DNA of 64,000 nt from an uncultured delta proteobacterium (lineage in GTDB: Bacteria > Desulfobacterota > Syntrophia > Syntrophales > UBA2192): the NCBI GenBank assembly GCA_963810965.1, contig CAWEPT010000017.1:55741-119740 (forward strand). Reading direction: 5' to 3'. The stretch's first letter is position 1; every line of letters starts with the position of its first letter. Below the pieces are notes generated by a model, which was not told the DNA's origin, did not search any database, and worked only from the letters and a program-made list of their open reading frames with translations. Both the position numbers and the translations under genes were made by a program. Positions 3,094-61,416 of the stretch are shown one piece after another.

Positions 3094-3100
3094 GTTGGAT

Positions 3101-3767
3101 ATGGCGATTGTCGAACTGAGAGAGTACGCGCACGCCCCCACGGGCCGGGGAAAGGGACTGCAGAAGTTTTCCTTCTCGCTTTCGCCGGGCGATGCCTTCA
3201 GCCTTCATGCCGACCGGATCGACGATGCGCACCTTTTCCTGAGGGCCCTGGCAACCCTCGAGCCGCCGGAGGAGGGAACGTACTTTTTCAAGGGCGAAGC
3301 GCTGGATTTTACCAAGTCCCGCCGGCTCCTGCCCGTCCGGAGAAGGATCGCCTATCTCGGGACCGATGCCGCCCTGATCGGGAACCGGACGCTGAGAACG
3401 AATCTGTTGCTCGGCCGCTACTACCACGAAAACAAGCTGGACCTGGAGTTGAGCGACGATGTCCTGTCCATGTGCCGCCTTTTGGGGATCGAGGAAAAGC
3501 TCGACCTTCGCCCCGCACAGGTCGCGCTGGAGGATGTCCGCGCGGCCGTCATCGTCCGGGAGATGACGAAGGGGGCCGAGGTGTTTCTCATCGAGCAGGC
3601 CTTTGTCGTTCTCGCCCGCCCGGTCGTCGAGCTCTACATCGAGATGATCCGGAAGATGATCGATTCGGGCATTCCCTGCGTCTACTATGCCGGACTGACG
3701 CAGTACGATCGCCTGTTCAAGAAGAAGAGACATCTACATTCGGGACGGCGTGGTGAATGTCGTTTGA
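3101..3767 (+). CDS. ABC-ATPase-fold protein in the MlaF position with all catalytic motifs degenerate (frame change near 3725)
   Basis: Part of ORF 3074-4255, starting at ATG 3101. It aligns in register with MlaF (RRRIAYLG.., EVFLIEQAF) but lacks Walker A, the Q-loop, LSGG, the Walker B D-E and the H-loop. The tail DIYIRDGVVNVV* is in another frame and ends at TGA 3765-3767. Confidence 0.65.
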
Positions 3768-11428: not shown

Positions 11429-11483
11429 CCTCGACACCGTTGTTCCCATCCATTTGTAGATCATGGGCAAGAGGAGAACCTCG

Positions 11484-12690
11484 ATGGAAGCAGAAAAACG
11501 AAAAACAGCGGTCTACATGGTGGTCTATGGCACCTACGCCACGGATCCCCGTGTTCGCAAAGATGCCGAGACGCTCGCCTGCCTTGAGGATTTTACCGTA
11601 ACGGTCGTCGTACCGAAACTAGGGGATGCTCCTGGCACAACGCAACTAAACGGCGTCAACGTGGTTGAGTTGGATGTCTGTCGATACCGGGGAAAGAGCA
11701 TATACGGGTATCTGGCATCGTACCTGAAATTTTTGTGGGCTGCATTCCGGCACTGTTCCAGGCTGACCCTTCGCGGCGGGATCGATGTGGTCCACATACA
11801 CAACATGCCGGATTTCCTCATTTTCTCGGCCATCGTGCCGCGCCTTCTGGGGAAGAAAATCATCCTGGACATCCACGACACCGTACCCGAAACCTTTATC
11901 GGTAAGTTCAGAAACCATTCCGGCTTGATGTTCCGGCTCCTGTGCATGGAAGAATCCATCTGTTGCCGCCTTGCACACCGGATCCTCTGCGTCAATCACC
12001 CTCAGCGAGATCTGCTGGTGAGCCGGGGTATCCCCGAACACAAGATCTCGATCTCCATGAACGTTCCCGACGAACGATGGTTCGGTAACGGTTCAGGCGA
12101 CGATCCTGGAGGAAAAGCGACGAACAGCTTCGACCTGGTATACCATGGATTATTGGCCAAGAGGCTGGGTGTCGACCTGACCATTCGGGCCGTCTCGAAC
12201 CTCAACGGCAGTATCCCCGGTCTGAAGTTTCATGTCATCGGATCCGGTGATGACCGGGAAGAACTCATTTCTTTGGCCGAGAGCCTGGGCCTGAGTTCCT
12301 GTATTCAGTTCCACGGATCCATCCCCATCGATCAAATTGCCACTACCCTGCGTCCCATGCATCTGGGAGTCGTTTCCAACCGGAGCAACATCGCAACGGA
12401 ACTCATGCTGCCCGTCAAGATGCTTGAATACGTCGCGCTGGGCATCCCGGTCGTTGCGCCGCCGCTGCGAACGATTAAACATTACTTCTCCGATGACATG
12501 CTGAGTTACTTTGAGACGGAAGACGTCGACTCGCTATCATTGGCCATCCGGGATGCCTACCGGAATGAGGAAAAACGACTGAAGCAGGCGAAAAGCGCCA
12601 GAAAATTTCTGGACCAGTACGGCTGGGTGCGACAGAAGCAGGAATTCATCGGTCTTTACCGATCGCTGGCCCTGCAGTCCGGATCCGTGA
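11484..12690 (+). CDS. GT4-family (GT-B) glycosyltransferase; 3' end uncertain
   Basis: First part of ORF 11463-13451. ATG 11484 follows GAGGAG. Motifs include VVHIHNMPDFL, F.VIGSGD and LPVKMLEYVALGIPVVAP. An out-of-frame TGA at 12688-12690 plus AAGGAG-ATG 12720 suggest a lost stop. Confidence 0.75.
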
Positions 12691-12719
12691 AAGAAAAAAC
12701 AAAAAAGGAGATCAGCAGC

Positions 12720-13704
12720 ATGCTGAACATGGCGCAGATCGGGGTCGGATACTGGGGCCCGAATCTGTTGAGGAATATGGTCTCGAGCAAGAGATGCCGG
12801 GTGAAAACGGTTGTCGACCTGTCCCCCGAGCGGCAGGAATACGTTCGCGGCCTTTATCCGGCGGTCAATGTCACGGCGGACGTTCGTGACGTGTTTGAAG
12901 ACCCTGAAATCCAGGCCGTCGTGATCGCTACGCCCGTCAAGTCGCATTTCGATCTGGCCATGAAAGCCCTGGGAGCGGGAAAGCACATCATGGTCGAAAA
13001 GCCAATCGCCACAACGGTTGCCGAGGTTGACGAGATCGGCAGACCTCGCCGACAAAAAGAAGCTTGTCGCGATGGTCGGCCACACGTTCCTCTACAATGC
13101 GGCCGTCCGTTACGTGAAGAAACTGATCGACGCGGGCGAACTGGGCGACATCCGCTACATCTACAGCCAGAGGCTCAACCTGGGCAGGATCCGGTCCGAC
13201 GTCGATGCCCTGTGGAACTTTGCCCCCCACGACATCAGCATCATCCAGTACTGGCTGGGGGACCCGGAGCCGGTTTCTGTCATGAAAAGGGGAGTCGACT
13301 ACATCCAGGAAACAATCGACGACGTTGTCTTCATGAACATCTGTTACCCGAACAAGGTCATGGCGAACATCCATGTCAGCTGGCTGGATCCGCGAAGGCT
13401 CCGCCAGATGACCGTCGTGGGATCCAAAAAGATGGTCGTCTACGACAATGACGCCGAAAACAAGATCGCCATCTACGACAAGGGGATCGAGCGCAAGGCG
13501 GTCCTGGGGCAGAACATGGACTATGACAACCCCCGGTCGCGGAGCTTCAATCATCGAGAAGGGGACGTGATTCTGCCACGAATCGATTTTCCGGAGCCGA
13601 TCAAGGTCGAGATCGAGCACTTCGCGGACTGCGTCGAAAACGGCACCATGTGCCTGAGCGGTATCGATCATGCCCGCAAGGTCGTCCGTATCCTGGCCTC
13701 CTGA
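12720..13704 (+). CDS. Gfo/Idh/MocA oxidoreductase, WbpB-like UDP-sugar 3-dehydrogenase (frame change near 13040)
   Basis: MLNMAQIGVGYWGPNLLRN..AVVIATPVKSHF..GKHIMVEKP (tail of ORF 11463-13451) joins ORF 13018-13704. Confidence 0.75.
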
Positions 13705-27955: not shown

Positions 27956-29824
27956 ATGAAGCAGGCAATCCTGGGCATATCGGCCTACTATCACGACAGC
28001 GCGGCGGCAATCCTGGTGGACGGCGAGATCGTCGCCGCCGCGCACGAAGAGCGATTTACGAGGAAGAAGCATGACCCGTCGTTCCCGCATGCACGCGGCG
28101 CGTTACGTGCTGGAGGAGGCCGGCGTCTGGAGTTCAGGGATCTTCTGGCGGTCGCGTTTTATGACAAGCCGTTCCTGACGTTCGAGAGACTGCTGGAAAC
28201 CTACGACGCTTTTGCGCCCCGGGGACTGGTCAGCTTCTGGTCGGCGATTCCGGTCTGGATCAAGGAGAAGCTGTTCATGAAGCGGATGCTCCGCGAGAGT
28301 CTCTGCCGAACTCGGGAAGGGGACGTGCCGATTTTCTTTCCGGAGCACCACCTGTCCCACGCGGCCAGCGCCTTCTACCCGTCCCCCTTCGAGGAGGCGG
28401 CGATCGTGACGATCGACGGCGTGGGCGAGTGGGCGACGACCACCATCGGGCAGGGCGCGGGGAAGCGAGATCACGATTCACCAGGAATTAAGATTTCCCC
28501 ATTCCGTGGGGCTGCTGTATTCCGCGTTCACCTACTACACGGGCTTCCGGGTCAACAGCGGGGAATACAAGCTGATGGGGCTTGCCCCCTACGGGAACAG
28601 CGGATGCGTCCCAGACGGCGGACTTCAAGTCGAAAATCGTGCGCGAGCTGGTGGACATCCGAGAGGACGGGTCGATCCTCCTCAACATGGACTACTTCGA
28701 TTATCGCGACGGGCCTGCGGATGGTCAACGAGGAGAAGTGGCTGGACCTGTTCGGGATCCCGGCCCGAGAAGCCGGAGACGGAGATTTCCCAGGACTACA
28801 TGAACATGGCGCTGGCCATCCAGCAGGTGACCGAGGAGATCGTGCTCCGGCTCTGCCGCACCGCAAAGGAAGCGCACCGGGAGCCAAAATCTCGTGCTGG
28901 CCGGAGGCGTCGCGCTGAACAGCGTGGCGAACGGCAAGGTGCTCAAATCGGGCCTTTTCGACGATATCTGGATTCAGCCCGCAGCGGGCGATGCGGGCGG
29001 CGCGGTGGGCGCAGCCTGTGCCGTCTGGCACATTTCGATGGGCAGGGAGCGCAAGACCGAGGACCGGCCAGGACGGGATGAAGGGTGCGTTCCTGGGGCC
29101 GGAGTACAGCGGAAGCCGGATCGAAAAGACCCTGCGCAGGTTCGATGCCCGGCCCGGCATTTCGAGAACTACGATGAACTGGCCGCCGACGGTCGCGAAG
29201 ATCCTGTCGGAGGGAGCCGTCGTCGGATGGTTTTCGGGCCGGATGGAGTACGGGCCCCGTGCCCTGGGAAGCCGGAGCATCCTCGGGGATGCGCGCAACC
29301 CCGAAATGCAGAAGAAGATGAACCTCAAGATCAAGTACCGGGAGGGGTTCCGGCCCTTCGCCCCGACCGTGCTGGAGGAGGATATCCAGGAGTACTTCGA
29401 TGTGGATCGTCCATCGCCATACATGCTCCTGGTCGTCCCGATCCGTGAGGACAAGAAGAAACCGGTTCCCGCCGATTACAACGACTGGAGCCTTTACGAT
29501 CGCCTCTATTTCCTGCGCTCCGACCTGCCTGCCATCACGCACGTGGACTATTCGGCGCGGATCCAGAGCGTCCGGCGCGACGTGAATCCGAGGTACTGGC
29601 AGCTGATCCGGGAATTCAAGAAGCTGACCGGCTACGGTGTCATCGTCAACACGAGTTTCAACGTGCGCGGCGAGCCGATCGTCTGCACGCCGGAGGATGC
29701 GTACCGCTGCTTCATGCGCACGGAGATGGACTACCTCGTCCTCGGCGATTACCTGCTCGACAAGAAAGAGCAGCCGCCGCTGCCGGAGACGAAGGACTGG
29801 CGGGCGGAATTCAAACTGGACTGA
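27956..29824 (+). CDS. NodU/CmcH-family carbamoyltransferase (at least 4 frame changes)
   Basis: ORFs 27956-28918, 28894-29448 and 28991-29824 plus connecting frames. Motifs include ILGISAYYHDSAAAILVDGEIVAAAHEERFTRKKHD, GRMEYGPRALGSRSILGD and NTSFNVRGEPIV. Confidence 0.85.
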
Positions 29825-32886: not shown

Positions 32887-34223
32887 ATGATCTTGGTTGA
32901 TAATGCATTGAAAGCCCGGGAGGAACAGGGAAACCCGATCCGCGTCGCGATGATCGGCGCAGGCTTCATGGGGCAGGGCCTCACGAATCAAATCGTGAAC
33001 AGCATGCCGGGCATGCGCATGGTCGCCGTGCAGAATCGCCACCTGGAAAAGGCGTTCCATGTCTACCGCTACTCGGGGCTGGAGGACATCGTCGAGGCGA
33101 CAACACAGGCGCAGATGGAGGATGCCATCCGTGCCGGGAAGCCGGTCGTGACGGAAGATGCCTTCCTGCTGGCGAGATCCGGGCAGGTCGATGTACTGGT
33201 GGACGTGACCGGATCGGTGGAGTTCGGGGCACACGTCGTTCTCGAGGCGTTCAAGCACGGCAAGGACGTCGTCTTGATGAATGCCGAGCTCGACGCGACG
33301 ATCGGGCCGATCCTGCAGGTGTACGCGAAGAAATACGGAGTCATCATGTCGGCGTGCGAAGGGGACGAGCCCGGCGTGCAGATGAACCTCTATCGCTGGG
33401 TCAAGGGGCTTGGGACTGATCCCGCGAGTGCTCGGCAACGTCAAGGGGCTTCAGGATCCATACCGGAATCCGACGACCCAGAAAGGCTTTGCCGAGCGAG
33501 TGGGGCCAGAACCCGGCGATGGTGACGAGCTTTGCCGACGGCTCGAAGATCAGCTTCGAGCAGACCATCGTGGCGAACGCGACCGGGTTTCGTGGTGAAG
33601 TCGCGAGGGATGTCCCGGGGCCTCGAGTACCGCGACGACGTCATGAAGATCGGAAGCATCTACGACATCGAGGAACTGCGCCGACTCGGCGGGATCGTCG
33701 ATTACGTGGTCGGCACGCCGCTGACGAAGGTCTATTGCCTGGCCGAGCACCCCGATCCCAAGCAGCAGCACTACCTGAACCTGTACAAGATGGGAGAGGG
33801 GCCGCTCTACCCGTTCTTCATCCCCTACCATCTGGTCCACTTCGAGGTGCCGAACGCGATCGCGCGGGTGGTGCTGTTCCGCGATCCGGTGGCCCAGCCG
33901 CTGGGAGGGCCGGTGGTCGAAGTCTGCGCCGTGGCCAAGCGCGATCTCAAGGCGGGCGAGGTTCTCGACGACTACGGCATGTACATGACATATGGCGAGG
34001 CCGTCAATGCCGATGAGATGAGCGAGAAGCGATACCTGCCCGAGGGCCTTGTCGAGGGCTGCAGGCTCAAGCGGGATATCCGGAAGGACGCCGTCATCAC
34101 GTACGATGATGTGGACCTTCCGCCGAACCGTCTTGCGGACCGGCTGCGCGCCGAGCAGTACCGTCATTTCCGGGGCGAGACATGGCTGGAGGAGTCATCT
34201 CGGCTGATCGGAGGACCGGATAA
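32887..34223 (+). CDS. NAD(P)-binding homoserine-dehydrogenase-like oxidoreductase with a SAF domain (COG4091-like); frame changes, 3' end uncertain
   Basis: ORFs 32887-33525, 33410-33598, 33489-34016 and 33532-34548. Contains the Rossmann motif IRVAMIGAGFMGQG. The in-frame reading continues to 34548, implausibly overlapping rfbF. Confidence 0.55.
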
Positions 34224-34345
34224 GCAGCGCGGGGATCAGTGCAGGGCCGCGCGCGCGAGTCATCCTGCGCGACGGGGGGATTCGATGAAGGTCATCAGAT
34301 TTCTGCGACAGGATGCGATGGCCGTAAATCTTGCGAGGAAAGCAA

Positions 34346-35142
34346 ATGAAAGTTGTTCTGTTCTGCGGCGGAATGGGCATGAGGTTGAGGGAATATTCGG
34401 AATCGATTCCCAAGCCCATGGTCGAGATCGGATACAGGCCGATCATGTGGCACGTGATGAAGTACTATGCCCATTACGGGCACAAGGATTTTATCCTGTG
34501 CCTGGGATACAAGGCCGACGTGGTGAAAAAATATTTTGTCAATTATGACGAGTGCATCTCGAACGATTTCGTCCTGAGCAACGGGTGCAAGGACGTGGAA
34601 CTGCTGAGCAGCGACATCAGCGATTGGAAAATCACTTTTGTGGACACCGGCCTGCGCTCCAATGTGGGGGAGAGACTCAAGGCAGTTGAAAAGTATGTCG
34701 GTGAGGAAGATGTCTTTCTGGCGAATTATTCGGATGGGTTGACGGACCTTTACTTTCCGGATTATCTGAAAATGTTCCTGGCGAGCAATAAGGTGGCTGC
34801 CTTCGTTTCCGTCAAGCCCACGCAGAGTTTTCACGTCGTGACGTTCCGAAACGGTCAAGACGTGTCCGGCATCCGTCACCTCGGCGATTCGGACATCTGG
34901 ATCAATGGGGGATATTTCATCTTCCGGAAAGAAATCTTTCGATACATGAAAGCAGGGGAAGAACTCGTCGTCGAGCCGTTTCAGAAGGCTCATCGAGGAC
35001 CGGCAGATCGTCACCCTTAGGCACAACGGCTTCTGGGTCGCCATGGATACCTTTAAAGACAAGCAGTATCTGGATGATCTGGTTTCGACGGACAGGGCGC
35101 CGTGGGAAGTGTGGAAGACGGACGGAGTCGAGGGACAGGTGA
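34346..35142 (+). CDS. rfbF: Glucose-1-phosphate cytidylyltransferase (frame changes near 34990 and the 3' end)
   Basis: MKVVLFCGGMGMRLREYSESIPKPMVEIGYRPIMWHVMKYYAHYGHKDFILCLGYK in ORF 34331-35020. The continuation ..FWVAMDTFKDKQYLDDL..APWEVW lies in ORF 35043-35315. Confidence 0.85.
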
Positions 35143-41240: not shown

Positions 41241-42880
41241 ATGCTTTACTTGTTGCACCAGCTTGTATCGGAAAGCGCTCTGAGATTTCCTGAACGGATA
41301 GCCGTTCGCTTTCAGGGCCGCGGCATCACCTATGCGGATCTGGAGAGCGAGTCAGGCAAACTGGCCCGGGTCCTCGGCGGAAATGGGCGTGAAGAGAGGG
41401 GACAGGGTCGGGATTCACTTGAACCGGTCCATCCACTCCGTCATCGGGGCCCTGGGGATCCTGAAGGCGGGGGCGGCGTACGTGCCCATCGATCCCATGG
41501 CTCCTGCGGCTCGCATCGACTACATCGTGAACAAGTGCGGGATACGCCATCTGATCACATCGCAGAAAAGGCTCGGGGCCCTGGAGGGAGTCTTTCCCTC
41601 GGGTGCCCCGCTGCAGGGAGTATTCAGTCATGGACGGCCGGGAATCCCGGCCGCAACCGTTCGGGTCGGCGGTCCAGGTCGATTGGGAGGAGGTCCGGGA
41701 CGGAATCCCCGACGGCGACCGAGATGCGGCGAGCCTGGATTCCGACCTTGCGTATATCCTGTTCACGTCGGGATCCACCGGCAATCCGAAGGGGGTCATG
41801 ATCACACATCGCAATTCCCTTACCTTTGTCGATACGGCTCACGATTTTTTCGGGATCGACAAGGAGGATCGGTTTTCGAACATCTGCCCTCTGCACTTCG
41901 ACATGTCCGTCTTCGATCTGTACGTAGCGTTCAAGGCGGGGGCATCCGTGGTCATCATCCCGGAGAGCGCGGCGATTTTTTCTGCGAAGCTGGCGGAAAC
42001 CATCGAAAAAGACAGAATCACCGTGTGGAACTCCGTGCCGTCGGCGCTCTCCCTCCTGGCCAACTATGGGAAGCTGGATCAGCACGACCTGTCGGGATTG
42101 AGGCTGGTTCTCTTTGCCGGCGAGGTGTTTCCTGTGAAATATCTGCGGCGGCTCAAGGAATGCGTCCCGGCGGCGAGGTTCTGCAATATGTACGGGCAGA
42201 CGGAGGCCAACACGTCGACTTATTACTGGGTCGACCGGGTTCCCGCGGACGACAGGCAGGTGCTTCCGATCGGCAAATCGCTCCCGAACTTCGACGTGTT
42301 TGCCCTGGACGAGGACGGCCGCAAGATCGAAGGGCCGGGACACGAGGGCGAATTGTTCGTGAGAGCCTCCTCGGTCGCCCGCGGCTATTGGGGGGACGAG
42401 GAAAGAACTCGGCAAAACTTCGTGCGGAACCCCCTGCTGCCGGACCTGAACGAGACGGTGTACCGGACGGGCGACCGGGTCCGGATGGACCCCGACGGGA
42501 ATTACGTGTTCCTCGGCCGCAAGGATCACATGATCAAGAGCCGGGGCTACCGGATCGAGATCGGGGAGATCGAGGCCGTGCTGCAGAACCATCCCGGCGT
42601 CCGGCAGGCCGTCGTCGTCCCGATACCGGACGATCTCATCGGCAACCGGATTTCCGTGCTGATCGTTCCCGCGGCGCGGGAAGGGATCGGGAAGGAGGAG
42701 ATCCTCGCCTACTGCTCCGGCCATCTGCCGAAGTACATGATCCCGGAGATCGTGGAGTTCCGGGACCGCCTGCCGACGACCTCCTCGGGAAAGGTGGACC
42801 GGGCGAAACTGGCGGCGGTGGAGAGGCCCATAGGAAATCGCGGCGCGAGAGAATGCAGGGCCGCGGGTCCACGGCGGTGA
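41241..42880 (+). CDS. Stand-alone NRPS-type adenylation enzyme (DltA-like) (2 frame changes)
   Basis: ORFs 41241-41801, 41332-42891 and 41603-42880. Core motifs seen: LAYILFTSGSTGNPKGV, HFDMSVFD, NMYGQTEA, YRTGDRV, GRKDHMIKSRGYRIEIGEIE and SSGKVDR. Confidence 0.85.
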
Positions 42881-42954
42881 ACATCCGGTGACCCGGTGAG
42901 CGCTGAACGGTGCGCTCGAACGAGTGCAAAGAATCCAGGGGAAAGGAATCGTCA

Positions 42955-54785: not shown

Positions 54786-56384
54786 TTATACACTTGTCTT
54801 TCGCAGAAGCAGCTTGAGTTCCTCCAGCGTATCCGCCTCCTCGGGCGGCTTGTCCTTCCACTTCACGATGCGGGGCGAGCGGAGGGTCAGGCCCGATTTG
54901 TGTCGCGCAGACGTCTCGATGCCCTCGAAGGCGATCTCGAAGACGAGCTGCGGACTCACGGAGCGCACGGGTCCGAATTTCTCGAGGGTGTTCTGCCGGA
55001 TGAAGGCGTCGATGCGCCCGATTTCGTCATCGGTGAGCCCGGAGCAGGCCCTGGCCACGGGAACGAGGTCGCCCCGGCGCCAAACCCCGAAGGTGTAGTC
55101 GGTAAAAAGGTTTTCCCTCCCAGCCTGTCCGGGCCGGGCGTAGATGAGGATCGCGTCGATCGTGTGAGGCTCGATCTTCCACTTCCACCAGCTGCCCCGG
55201 TGCCGCCCCGCCTCGTAGGGCGAATCGAGGTGCTTGAGCATGAGCCCCTCGGCTTGCACGGCGCGACACTCCCGGCGCCTCGCCGTCAGATCCTCCCAGC
55301 TTGCATCTTTCAGGATCTCCGACAGGCGGAGGCGTCCCTCAAAGCCGCGTTGTCCGAGAATCCTCTCCAGTTCGGCCCGCCGATTTCGCAGGGGCTCCGT
55401 CCGGATGTCCTTTCCCTGCGACTCGAGGAGGTCGAAGGCCATGAAGATGACGGGAATCTCCTCGAGGATCTTCCGGGTCGGTGACTGGCGCCCGATCCGT
55501 CTTCTGCAGCAGGCTGAAGGGCAGGGGGCTTCCGTCTTTCCAGGGGAGGATCTCCCCGTCGATGACCGTGCCGTCCGGCAGGGTTGCCGCTGCGTCCGCA
55601 AGCTCGGGAAATGTCCGTCCAAGCAGCTCCCCGCCCCGGGACCAGATGAAGGCCATCCCGCCGCGTTTGACGACCTGGGCCCGGATCCCGTCCCGTTTCC
55701 ATTCGGCGCACCACTGGCGCCTGTCTCCGAGGGTCTCGGGCAGCGCGTCGAGCGGGAAGGCGAGCTGGAGCGGGTAAGGGCGGCTCACATCCGCCTCCCC
55801 CCGGTCCGGCGAGAGGAGCCAGCGGAAAAACTCTCCTGTGGGCTCCCAGGCGCTCATGAGCCGGTGCGAGATGACGGTGGCTTCCAGACCGGCGAGCTCG
55901 CCGAGTGCCCGGATGATCGTCTGCCGCGAGATGCCCACACGGAGATCCCCCGTGATCATCTTGTTCCAGACAAGCCGCTGCCTGTCGTCCATCTCCCGCC
56001 AGGTGCCGAGAATGGAGTCCCTGAGGGATGTCTCATCGTCATCCTGCAGCGGCAGAAGCCTCTCCTCCACCGTTGCCCGCAGCCCCAGGGGGCTCGACAC
56101 CCCGTCAGCCGCCGGGAGCAGCAGCGCGATCGTTTCTGCCACATCGCCCACCGCCTCATTGCATTCGTCGATAAGCCAACCCGGTATACCCGCTGCCAAG
56201 GAGGCCCATTCTTTGAGTTTCGCCGTGGGGACAGTGCGCTTGATTTTGTCGCCGATAAGAAACCAGAGGGCCCAGGCCGCATCGTCGGGCGGCGCCTCGG
56301 CAAAGTAGCGCTTCAGCGCCTCGACCTTGCTGCGGTCTTCGTCGTCTCGTCGAGGGTGAAATAAAGGTCGGTAAACCGTTGCAT
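54786..56384 (-). CDS. ATP-dependent DNA ligase (ligase-associated damage-response type) (2 frame changes)
   Basis: ORFs 55339-56391 and 54786-55622. Contains the adenylation motif CAEWKRDGIR, plus EGLMLK and WWKWK. The natural start MQRFTDLYFTLDETTKT (ATG 56384) is out of frame with the body. Confidence 0.85.
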
Positions 56385-56395
56385 AAGACACCGGG

Positions 56396-58850: not shown

Positions 58851-60849
58851 ATGCTTTCACTCCAGAACATCTCCAAGCAGTACGGCCCCAAGGTCCTCTT
58901 CGAGGGCTTCTCCCTGTTCATCGGCGAGCGCGACCGGATTGCCCTGGTCGGCTCCAACGGGACGGGCAAATCGACGCTGATGAAGATCGTCACGGGCGAG
59001 GTCGAGGCCGACACGGGCGCGATCCACAAGTCCCGCTTCTCGACCGTCGGCTACCTGCCCCAGGAGCTCATCGGGCACGCCGGCCGGACGCTCCTCGAGG
59101 AGACCCTGAAGGCCTTCGAGGATCTGCAGCAGCTCCAGGCTCGCTTTGACGAGATCTCCATGGAGATCCAGGCAAGGACCGCTGCCGGGGAATCCGGCCC
59201 CGAGATCGAGAGCCTGCTTGCCGACATGGGGCGCATCCAGCACCGCATCGAGGACGGCGAGGGCTGGCGGATCGAGGCCAGGGCCAAGGAGATCCTTTTC
59301 GGGCTCGGCTTCGGGGAGTCGGATCTTCACCGGCCCTCGGGGGAGTTCAGCAGCGGCTGGCAGATGCGGATCGAACTGGCGAGGCTCCTCCTGAGGGAGC
59401 CGTCGGTGCTGCTTCTCGACGAACCGACAAACCACCTCGACATCGAATCCCTCGAGTGGCTCGAGGCCTACCTGAAGTCCTACGCGGGGGCCGTCCTGCT
59501 CGTCTCGCACGACCGGCGCTTCCTGGACAACCTGGTCCGTCGCACCGTCGAGATCACCCAGGGGAGGGGGACGGAGTATGCGGGCAACTACTCCGACTAT
59601 CTGCGCGAAAAGGAAACCCGGCGCGGACTCCTCGAGGCGGCCTTCGAGAACCAGCAGAAGATGATCCGCGAGACGGAGCGCTTCGTCGAGCGCTTCCGGG
59701 CCAAGAGCACGAAGGCAAGACAGGTTCAGAGCCGGCTGAAGCGCATCGAGAAGATCGATCTCATCGAGCTCGAGACCGATGAGCAGGAGATCGCCTTCCG
59801 GTTCCCGGCACCGCCCCGGTCGGGCAGGTACGTCCTGCAGCTCGAGGGCGTGGACAAGCGCTACGGAGACACTCGCGTGCTCGACGGGGTCTCGCTCACC
59901 ATCGAGCGGGGGGACCGCGTCGCCGTGCTCGGTGTCAACGGCGCCGGCAAGTCGACGCTGGCCAGGGTCCTGGCGGGCACCGAGCCGATCCAGGGCGGGC
60001 GCCGCACCGAGGGGCACCAGGTCATTGCCTCCTACTATGCCCAGAACCAGGCCGATGCGCTCAACCCCGCGAGGACGGTGCTCGAGAGCGTCGAGGAGGT
60101 GGCGGCCTTCGGCACGGGGGGAAACCTCAGGACCCTGCTGGGTCATTTTCTCTTTTCCGAAGACGACGTGTTCAAGCGGGTGTCGGTCCTGTCCGGCGGA
60201 GAGAAGAGCCGGCTCGCGCTGGCGCGGATGCTCCTGGTGCCGGCCAATTTCCTGATCCTCGACGAGCCGACGAACCACCTCGACCTGCGCTCCAAGGAGG
60301 TCTTGAAGGATGCCCTGCGGGCCTTCGAAGGGACCTTCGCCATCGTCTCCCACGACCGCGACTTCCTGGCCGGCCTCATCACAAAGGTCATTGTGGCAAA
60401 AGATCGGGGGCTTGTGGTCTACCCGGGCTCCGTCGACGACTACCTGCGGATCTGGCACGAGAAAGAGGCCGGGGAGCAAACCGGCAGACAGACCGGAAAA
60501 AACGGCGCCGACCCCGATGCCGGCGAGCAGGAGCGGAAATCAGGGCGAGCGGGAACGCAAGCGCCGCGAGGCCGAGCGCCGCCAGGAGCGCTACCGGAGG
60601 CTCAAACCGCTGAAGGACGAACTCGAGGGCCTCCTTTCCCGGATCGGGCAGATGGAGAAACGCAAGGAGGAGCTGGAATCGATGCTTGCCGACCCGCGGA
60701 CATACGGGGACGCCAGTCAGGCGCGCTCGGCGGGCTCCGAGCACCGCGAGATCGCGCCGGCCCTCGACGCGCTGTATCAGCAATGGTCGGTGGTTCAGGA
60801 AAAGATCGACGCGATTGAGCGGGAGATGACTGAGGCGGGGGAATTGTGA
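58851..60849 (+). CDS. ABC-F family ATPase (two ABC domains, no TM domain) (frame change near 60530)
   Basis: ORFs 58851-60818 and 60310-60849. Two Walker A motifs (GSNGTGKST, GVNGAGKST), two signatures (FSSGWQ, LSGGEK) and a C-terminal coiled coil. Confidence 0.9.
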
Positions 60850-60852
60850 GCA

Positions 60853-60883
60853 TAAAAAAAGGGGAGCCAAAAGCTCCCCTTTC
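60853..60883. terminator. Bidirectional terminator between the ABC-F and HesB-like genes
   Basis: AAAAAAA-GGGGAGC-CAAAA-GCTCCCC-TTTCCC. Confidence 0.65.
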
Positions 60884-60909: not shown

Positions 60910-61230
60910 TCAGCCGCACTCACCGCCGCAGCCGCCGCAGCCGTCGGCCTTCTGAAGGCTGGAGGTGATCGCGTAGCCCGACCCGCGGGGTGTCTCGACG
61001 AAATCGACCTTGATGGGTTTCACGTTTTCCAAAAGCGCCTTCTCGATCATGAAGGTCAGCCCGTTCGTGGTGAAAACTTCGTCGCCTTCCTGTGACTCAT
61101 CCAGAGCCATGCCCAGGGAGGGCCCGGCTCAGCCACCCTCGTTGAGGAATATCCTGACGAGGGCTTTCTCGTTGCGTTCCTTGAAAAACGCAACCATCAT
61201 CTCTTCCGCTTTGGGTGTGATTTCAAACAT
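60910..61230 (-). CDS. HesB/IscA-like protein with an in-frame UGA (candidate selenocysteine, codon 34)
   Basis: GGAGGA-N7-ATG at 61230. Reads MFEITPKAEEMMVAFFKERNEKALVRIFLNEGG-UGA(61131-61129)-AGPSLGMALDESQEG..., continuing as ORF 60910-61110 and ending ..ADGCGGCGGECG*. The UGA sits where IscA/HesB proteins carry the GGC Cys. Confidence 0.65.
61106..61128 (-). promoter_or_regulatory. Hairpin immediately 3' of the UGA (candidate bacterial SECIS)
   Basis: The mRNA reads GCCGGGCCCUCCCUGGGCAUGGC. GCCG pairs with UGGC and GCCC with GGGC, around a UCCCU loop. Confidence 0.35.
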
Positions 61231-61310
61231 TTAAATTTCCTCCGGAGAAATTATCATCTTAGATTAATGTGCACACGATTTGTGCCTTGTCAAACGATAT
61301 TTTAGGGGAT

Positions 61311-61379
61311 AGGTAACAGGTGACAGCCGACAGCCAACAGATCCCTTCTATCTGGCTGTAGACTGTAGACCTGTCACCT
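61311..61379. repeat. Word-repeat hairpin (AGGTAAC AGGTGAC AGCCGAC AGCCAAC AGATCCC versus CTGGCTGT AGACTGT AGACCTGT CACCT)
   Basis: Read directly in the divergent spacer between the HesB-like and radical SAM genes. Confidence 0.75.
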
Positions 61380-61416
61380 GAAGCCTCACGTAAGATAGAA
61401 TCCACCAGCTTAGAAA

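Follow-up and report, generated by a model that had tools for sequence, protein, structure and literature searches.

A predicted HesB/IscA-like selenoprotein gene with an in-frame UGA in an uncultured bacterium of the Syntrophales

The subject of this report is a small gene on the minus strand of a 64,000-nucleotide (nt) stretch of contig CAWEPT010000017.1 (GenBank assembly GCA_963810965.1), from an uncultured delta proteobacterium of the Syntrophales. This whole stretch is called the window, and positions are counted from its first letter. The best explanation of our results is a monocistronic gene for a 106-amino-acid (aa) homologue of the A-type (IscA/HesB-like) iron-sulfur carriers, with selenocysteine (Sec) in place of the first conserved cysteine that ligates the cluster. 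According to this reading, to which we assign a probability of roughly 0.9, Sec would be inserted at codon 34, an in-frame UGA, in a process dependent on SelB and on a selenocysteine insertion sequence (SECIS). Two short hairpins follow the UGA; the second (H2) would be the likely SelB-binding element, and the first (H1) a further hairpin specific to Sec-encoding genes. The coordinates of the features are collected in Table 1.

A gene split at an in-frame UGA and its protein family

The open reading frame (ORF) listing of the window divides the gene into a 66-aa ORF (60910-61110, minus strand) and a 33-aa ORF (61129-61230, minus strand), both in the same frame. A preliminary description, made from the sequence before the present analysis, had joined the two from an ATG with a ribosome-binding site at 61230 across a single UGA, and had proposed a selenoprotein missed by ORF calling. 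The coordinates proved correct, down to a GGAGG at a suitable place before the ATG, and the proposal itself is borne out by family membership, by the pairing of Sec with cysteine among homologues, by a SECIS-like element found in the Sec forms and by the position of the UGA, which falls on a ligand cysteine of IscA. The sole interruption of the frame is the TGA at 61131-61129, which comes after 33 codons and is followed by 72 more codons before the stop TGA at 60912-60910. Since an in-frame TAA directly precedes the ATG at 61230, this ATG is the first possible start. The product reads MFEITPKAEEMMVAFFKERNEKALVRIFLNEGG-U-AGPSLGMALDES...DGCGGCGGECG.

The signals for expression lie upstream of Met1. 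An A/T-rich, -10-like stretch is found 17-19 nt downstream of the hexamer TTGACA (at about 61270-61263), and together with the conserved block around the hexamer it probably constitutes the promoter of the gene. TTGACA, GGAGG and the ATG are common to the syntenic genomes described below, and because this promoter block, the GGAGG and the ATG are all conserved 5' of Met1, the expression signals serve Met1 and not the internal Met41. A palindrome in the promoter spacer, GCACAAATCGTGTGC, was considered as an operator and rejected, as its left half is not conserved. On the other side of the gene, an intrinsic terminator (60883-60854) sits between the selenoprotein gene and a convergent ABC-F gene; it was seen by folding and was missed by a simple consensus scan.

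Table 1. Features of the selenoprotein locus, with positions counted in the window
Feature	Position	Strand	Details
HesB/IscA-like selenoprotein coding sequence (CDS), 106 aa	60910..61230	-	ATG 61230, predicted Sec codon 34, stop TGA 60912-60910
Shine-Dalgarno sequence GGAGG	61239..61243	-	8 nt before the ATG; invariant in 14/14 syntenic loci
In-frame UGA, predicted to be read as Sec34 in the motif GG-U-AGP	61129..61131	-	TGA in 77/80 loci; aligns with the IscA GGCSG cysteine
C-terminal Cys-rich tail C98-x2-C101-x3-C105	60916..60939	-	three cysteines invariant in alignment A2; align with the C-terminal Cys region of IscA
-35-like hexamer TTGACA in conserved block	61288..61293	-	invariant in 14/14 syntenic loci; putative promoter
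Intrinsic terminator, 12-bp G+C-rich stem GAAAGGGGAGCU/GGCUCCCCUUUU followed by a U-run	60854..60883	-	folding z = -3.6; 0/200 shuffles as stable
H1, GCCC[UCCCU]GGGC	61111..61123	-	starts 5 nt after the UGA; columns 9-12/18-21; consensus NCCC[UCNCU]GGGN
H2, GGCUC[UGGAU]GAGUC	61094..61108	-	20 nt after the UGA; columns 24-28/34-38; consensus GGCUC[UGGAY]GAGYC
Extended H1, hairpin of minimum free energy (MFE) in the window, starting inside the UGA	61104..61130	-	-19.0 kcal/mol; competes with H2

For comparison with protein families the product was scored with cysteine written at the UGA position. It passed the NCBIfam model NF038090 (IscA_HesB_Se) with 115 bits against a cutoff of 85 (E = 1.6e-33), covering model positions 1-100 of 101. 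The cutoffs of TIGR01911 (HesB_rel_seleno; 41.6 against 66.35 bits) and TIGR00049 (54.1 against 58.8 bits) were not passed, nor were those of the equivalogs IscA (31.3 against 150.6), SufA (36.7 against 136.2) and ErpA (38.2 against 117), and the score for Pfam PF01521 was marginally below its cutoff (25.5 against 26.3). The 66-aa fragment taken alone gave a Pfam match of only 12 bits. Judged by these scores, the window protein is to be regarded as a homologue of the IscA/SufA/ErpA, TIGR00049 and PF01521 families that belongs to none of the named equivalogs, and its gene as a new predicted member of a known and curated selenoprotein subfamily, NF038090.

Comparison of the family profile with known structures returned Aquifex IscA (1nwb, E = 4e-15), HI1723 (2apn), E. 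coli IscA/YfhF (1r94 and 1s98) and SufA (2d2a), in matches that span the whole length with E-values from 4e-15 to 1e-4. The UGA column aligns with the cysteine of GGCSG in 1nwb, 2apn and 1r94, in agreement with the earlier suggestion that the UGA occupies the place of the conserved cysteine in a GGC motif; we take this residue to be Cys35 of E. coli IscA, a cluster ligand. The C-terminal cysteines align with the CGC region of A-type carriers, and the ligand pattern of these carriers (one in GGCSG, two in a C-terminal CxC) would be matched by U34 together with the C-terminal cysteines. The preliminary description had treated the C-terminal cysteine cluster as something extra. This has to be corrected, as a tail with three cysteines is the usual condition in the family and lines up with the C-terminal ligands of IscA. 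Apart from this whole-length homology and the aligned ligand positions, the window protein differs from the IscA, SufA and ErpA carriers in its predicted Sec as first ligand, in its third C-terminal cysteine and in having no isc, suf or nif genes as neighbours.

HesB-like selenoproteins are not new. Zhang et al. (2006; PMC1794560) reported 11 of them in bacteria, including Syntrophus aciditrophicus, Syntrophobacter fumaroxidans, Desulfovibrio and Geobacter, and for S. aciditrophicus they reported SelD and 19 selenoproteins. The preliminary description had mentioned such proteins from surveys of deltaproteobacteria, and rightly so: the published proteins of S. aciditrophicus, S. fumaroxidans and D. 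vulgaris (supplement of PMC1794560) pass the same NF038090 model as the window protein, with 107-114 bits, and likewise fail TIGR01911. The window protein is 50% identical to that of S. aciditrophicus. It shares with these proteins a length of about 105 aa, the motif GG-U-xGP with Sec at the first ligand position, a Cys-rich C-terminal tail, the existence of Cys homologues and a Syntrophales-like host clade. It differs in the spacing of its tail, C-x2-C-x3-C instead of the C-x2-C-x-C of most relatives, and in being unannotated in the window. The family has been known since 2006, and the window gene is an ordinary member of low novelty.

With the TIGR01911 family the window protein has in common the motif UxGP, under which a 2026 review (PMC13188914) lists the HesB-like family, and homology to the IscA/HesB domain. 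The archaeal SECIS of that family is located in the 3' untranslated region, whereas the element in the window lies inside the coding sequence. The archaeal HesB-like protein of Methanococcus maripaludis has been labelled with 75Se, and its function was described as "not clear" (PMC11097638); for the NF038090-type subfamily, physical incorporation of Sec is not reported in the literature cited here. As a separate observation, the published HesB-like selenoprotein of Geobacter sulfurreducens (supplement of PMC1794560) passed neither model (NF038090 36.5 bits, TIGR01911 30.1 bits), so the "HesB-like" family of the literature is broader than the two NCBIfam models.

Conservation of the UGA and of both halves of the gene

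At first sight a search of 5.8 billion proteins could be taken to favor termination at the UGA. The locus would then encode a 33-aa peptide, a separate 66-aa protein from Met41, or both, or it would be a pseudogene in decay. Gene callers report just such products, other genes in the window are disrupted, and the closest homologues among the 120 matches listed (75-95% identity; about 55 of the 120) are all 63-68 aa long and begin at Met41. The full-length homologues among the matches listed, 101-110 aa long and only 45-58% identical, argue otherwise. They have the same Met1 and read GG-C-xGPSLGMALDE, with cysteine at the UGA column, and Met41 is an internal and invariant residue of the LGMALDE motif in these Cys homologues too. 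The earlier suggestion of an alignment with Cys-containing homologues thus yielded a clear pairing of Sec with cysteine, and the homologues starting at the downstream Met, which it had named as a possible objection, represent the same truncation artefact as the 66-aa ORF of the window.

The DNA of relatives bears on the same point. A scan of one genome per species gave 419 relatives, of which the best 80 were used for codon counts. These are metagenome-assembled genomes (MAGs) of Syntrophales, Syntrophaceae, Syntrophorhabdus, Desulfatiglandales and Desulfobacteraceae, gathered with a tighter alignment; an alignment of 29 sequences had contained no conserved stretch. The codon aligned with the UGA is TGA in 77 of the best 80 relatives, TGT in two and TGC in one. 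No stop occurs within the 33 codons 5' of it in any of 81 sequences, and ATG is found at codon -33 in 77 of the 81. Conservation at the three codon positions is 0.75/0.86/0.55 in the upstream 33 codons and 0.78/0.85/0.54 in the downstream part, as opposed to a flat 0.41 in the 5' flank. Because the upstream half equals the downstream half in this respect, unlike the flank, and is free of stops, both halves are translated as one protein.

Such constraint on both halves, with one frame kept across 80 genomes, is hard to reconcile with a true stop. There is in addition no Shine-Dalgarno sequence before Met41, the conserved promoter and the GGAGG stand before Met1, and an RNA element specific to Sec forms follows the UGA. 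Were the gene a decaying pseudogene, its TGA would not persist in 77 species. We consider termination at this codon very improbable.

Could the TGA be a sequencing or assembly error for TGC or TGT, in an otherwise ordinary gene for a Cys-type IscA/HesB protein? The window gives some cause for the question, since the ABC-F, DNA ligase and carbamoyltransferase genes, among others, are frameshifted, and the shift in ABC-F is specific to the window. The assembly errors seen are, however, indels and not substitutions. About 6 kb around the gene are syntenic with 14 Syntrophaceae/Syntrophales MAGs at 78-93% nucleotide identity, and because all 14 carry TGA at this codon, as do the great majority of the wider set of relatives (77/80), TGC or TGT in the reads is very unlikely. 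Moreover, the window sequence bears at its synonymous sites the signature of H1 and H2 that marks Sec forms and is absent from most Cys forms. An error at this position is hardly credible.

A genome-wide reassignment of UGA (genetic code 4 or 25), giving tryptophan or glycine at this position, would find support in the database entries P0009, P0018 and P0073, which have W at the UGA column. When the DNA of P0009 was retrieved, the codon under the W was TGA, from which it follows that these entries are translations with another genetic code chosen by the caller. TGA, furthermore, terminates more of the coding-like ORFs in the window than any other stop codon does and also ends the gene itself, and full-length homologues have at the UGA column cysteine, a metal ligand, rather than tryptophan or glycine. 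We give reassignment practically no credence. Apart from this question, locus L113 (261-581) is among the cases in which tryptophan is written at the Sec position, and some of the 63-68 aa fragments carry the name "Fe-S cluster assembly iron-binding protein IscA". Mis-annotation of this family is systematic in collections derived from metagenomes.

The RNA downstream of the UGA

The 78 Sec-form sequences were folded with RNAalifold from the UGA to +60 (alignment A3). The stretch ATGGCTCTGGATGAG after the UGA is nearly invariant in TGA forms, wobble positions included, and the consensus fold consists of two adjacent hairpins, H1 and H2. Over both hairpins 99% of the cells are paired, and 12 cells show two-sided compensation compared with 1.7 in shuffles, none of 500 shuffles reaching as high a count; pairing is lost when the partners are slid by 1-3 columns. 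The compensatory changes in H1 affect the wobble bases of Gly36-Gly40 and Pro37-Leu39, and occur in sequences from different clades. A long single stem drawn by eye (columns 3-11 with 24-33) was discarded, being 87% paired, devoid of covariation and no better than shuffles.

Cys-form genes, collected from metagenomes by means of a TGY-specific pattern, provided 25 distinct sequences for comparison with 75 Sec forms. All 75 of the 75 Sec forms have a fully paired H2, which is seen in just 5/25 Cys forms; for H1 the counts are 68/75 and 5/25, respectively. Wobble entropy within H2 (Ala42, Leu43, Glu45) amounts to 0 bits in the Sec forms as against 0.95-1.79 bits in the Cys forms; outside the stems the wobble bases of the Sec forms are free (1.5-1.7 bits). 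Because pairing is kept and wobbles are frozen in Sec forms, and both are relaxed in Cys forms, the H1+H2 element is specific to UGA-containing genes.

One Cys-form locus deserves separate mention. L055 (about 3100-3162, codon TGC) has an intact H2 (ATGGCTCTGGACGAGTCA) and has kept most of H1. It has the appearance of a gene recently converted from Sec to Cys, its SECIS surviving as a fossil. Such conversions with fossil elements have been described in the HesB-like family (PMC1794560), and L055 can be likened to the HesB-like protein of Desulfitobacterium hafniense, whose fossil SECIS is described there.

The bacterial SECIS model (the Zhang and Gladyshev consensus; PMC13188914, Fig. 2) calls for an apical loop of 3-9 nt on an upper stem of 4-16 bp, a G among the first two nucleotides of the loop, a distance of 16-37 nt separating the loop from the UGA, and an MFE of -7.5 kcal/mol or lower. 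H2 has a 5-nt loop on a 5-bp stem (6 bp with U23-A39), a G at loop position 2 followed by another G (UGGAU in 65/75 and UGGAC in 10/75 Sec forms), and a spacing of 25 nt from the UGA (columns 1-3) to the loop (columns 29-33). It is the best candidate for the SelB-binding SECIS stem-loop. Like the bacterial SECIS of the E. coli fdhF type, it is a stem-loop located within the coding sequence shortly downstream of the UGA, with a small apical loop, G-G at loop positions 2-3 and 25 nt from the UGA to the loop. Where that type has a single long, bulged hairpin, the window has two short ones that are separate from each other, and the covariation resides in the proximal one.

In an alternative reading Sec is still incorporated, but SelB recognizes H1, its extended form, or a composite of H1 and H2. 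True compensatory substitutions are found in H1, which is no less specific to Sec forms than H2, and in the window no other fold comes near the extended H1 in stability. On the other hand, the H1 loop (UCNCU) contains no G and lies only 9 nt from the UGA, outside the bacterial SECIS model (PMC13188914). Its outer extension is not conserved, and H1 would presumably fall within the stretch that the ribosome must unwind with the UGA in its A site. We regard this alternative as unlikely, although it is one to be taken seriously, and prefer H2 as the element recognized by SelB.

The preliminary description had also pointed to a hairpin starting right after the UGA. Such a hairpin is present, as the MFE fold of the window (-19.0 kcal/mol), but the claim needs qualification because two of its outer pairs fail to form in 50 and 36 of the 75 sequences. 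The extended H1 was for this reason rejected as a conserved element, being a feature of the window and not of the family; the elements that are conserved are H1 and H2.

Several results count against Sec insertion directed by H2, and the reading should be held with corresponding care. The H2 stem varies only between G-C and G-U pairs, with no double compensatory substitutions. Alone, H2 in the window reaches -6.4 kcal/mol (-7.1 with the extra U-A pair), slightly weaker than the threshold of the model; H1 and H2 together give -14.2 kcal/mol, which leaves the energy criterion borderline, and across the family H2 alone is at or below -7.5 kcal/mol in 25/75 sequences and H1+H2 in 75/75. Rfam, searched at the gathering threshold and at E <= 10, returned no SECIS or other meaningful family, the only hits being terminator-like 3' ends of small RNAs. 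No tRNA, tRNA-Sec included, was found in the 64-kb window or in 113 related loci, no SelA, SelB or SelD domain among the 30 largest or nearest window ORFs scanned, no other selenoprotein gene in the window, and no isc, suf or nif gene for Fe-S biogenesis among the neighbours in 80 loci. Several window genes are frameshifted, which makes the base-level quality of the assembly imperfect. Finally, in the naked window RNA the extended H1 wins and the base-pair probability of H2 is 0.00. In the E. coli fdhF SECIS the lower helix melts and only the upper stem-loop is needed; by analogy, the extended-H1 stretch would in any case be melted by a ribosome whose A site holds the UGA.

On the preferred reading, the gene would be transcribed from its own conserved promoter and translated from the ATG at 61230 behind the GGAGG. 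With UGA-34 at the ribosomal A site, the mRNA just downstream, H1 included, would be unwound. H2 would then be free at the mRNA entrance, where it could recruit SelB-GTP-Sec-tRNA(Sec), so that Sec is inserted and termination avoided. Translation would run on to the second TGA (60912-60910) and stop there because no such element follows, the terminator being next. The product would most likely be a dimer, and homology suggests that it binds iron or an Fe-S cluster via Sec34 and C98/C101/C105, which would make it an Fe-Se-ligated variant of the A-type carriers. If so, a single gene has TGA in two roles, as Sec at 61129-61131, with H1 and H2 after it, and as stop at 60910-60912, with the terminator after it.

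A more far-reaching proposal would be that the two hairpins form a SECIS architecture functionally distinct from the textbook single bulged hairpin, with H1 playing a role of its own. H1 may, for example, cause ribosome pausing or hinder RF2 before H2 is presented to SelB. We find this proposal improbable and mention it as speculation; were it true, the Fe-S carrier encoded by the gene would have a true Fe-Se ligand, and its cluster-transfer chemistry would be distinct.

Genomic surroundings and meaning of the gene

The window has a G+C content of 58.8%. The ORFs scanned include aconitase, a flavoprotein, glycosyltransferases, carbamoyltransferase, acyl-CoA dehydrogenase, acyltransferases, a Wzz-like protein, DNA ligase, a cNMP-binding protein, an ABC-F ATPase, a B12-binding radical-SAM protein and a histidine kinase. 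Around the selenoprotein gene the neighbours vary across the 80 loci: 39 have a convergent ABC-F gene and 30 an RdgB-like gene on the upstream side, and downstream there are TPR or YggS-like genes. As the neighbours are variable and include no isc, suf or nif genes, gene context does not inform function. Junctions with in-frame TGA at about 26177, 33523 and 39032 were considered as further selenoproteins and rejected, because they represent adjacent separate genes or a frameshifted gene.

Between the selenoprotein gene and a divergent radical-SAM gene (61417), the intergenic region 61311-61380 contains inverted arrays of 7-nt repeats. The arms of a perfect 10-nt inverted repeat, CAGGTGACAG/CTGTCACCTG, occupy 61317-61326 and 61371-61380, and CTGTAGA stands twice in tandem at 61356-61369. 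The copy number of the heptamers varies in relatives, with 8.4 copies of CTGTCGG in L003 (2813-2915) and CCTGTTA x4 in L008. These arrays, which lie 5' of the conserved promoter, may serve a regulatory or structural purpose.

A frameshift located between about 60499 and 60545 divides the convergent ABC-F ATPase gene (58851-60849, plus strand), leaving both ABC domains in one frame and the C-terminal coiled-coil domain in the other. Since five relatives have an intact ORF of 657-685 aa, the shift is confined to the window assembly and marks either an indel error or a recent pseudogene. Other genes that look frameshifted or fragmented are those for an ATP-dependent DNA ligase (54789-56391, minus), a carbamoyltransferase (27956-29824, plus), a GFO/IDH/MocA oxidoreductase (11463-13704, plus), a dehydrogenase-like protein (32887-34548, plus) and an AMP-binding enzyme (41332-42891, plus). 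Taken together, these genes point to an assembly in which indel errors are apt to occur, of the kind found in long-read data.

A large cluster for polysaccharide and cell-envelope biosynthesis, unrelated to the selenoprotein gene, occupies about 9900-53300. Among its products are glycosyltransferases, a DegT-type aminotransferase, a carbamoyltransferase, acyltransferase-3 proteins, a hexapeptide acetyltransferase with an acyl-carrier protein, an acyl-CoA dehydrogenase, a Wzz-like chain-length determinant and an O-antigen-ligase-like membrane protein.

In conclusion, the value of the gene lies mainly in annotation. Standard ORF calling splits it and reports a meaningless 66-aa fragment, and public collections contain dozens of such fragments as well as a few entries in which the UGA is given as tryptophan. 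For the organism, the gene would add one selenoprotein to its selenoproteome and would imply a Sec-decoding, selenium-dependent anaerobe of the Syntrophales type. For the subfamily, the comparison of Sec with Cys forms defines the recoding element, H1 and H2, in a clean and testable way.

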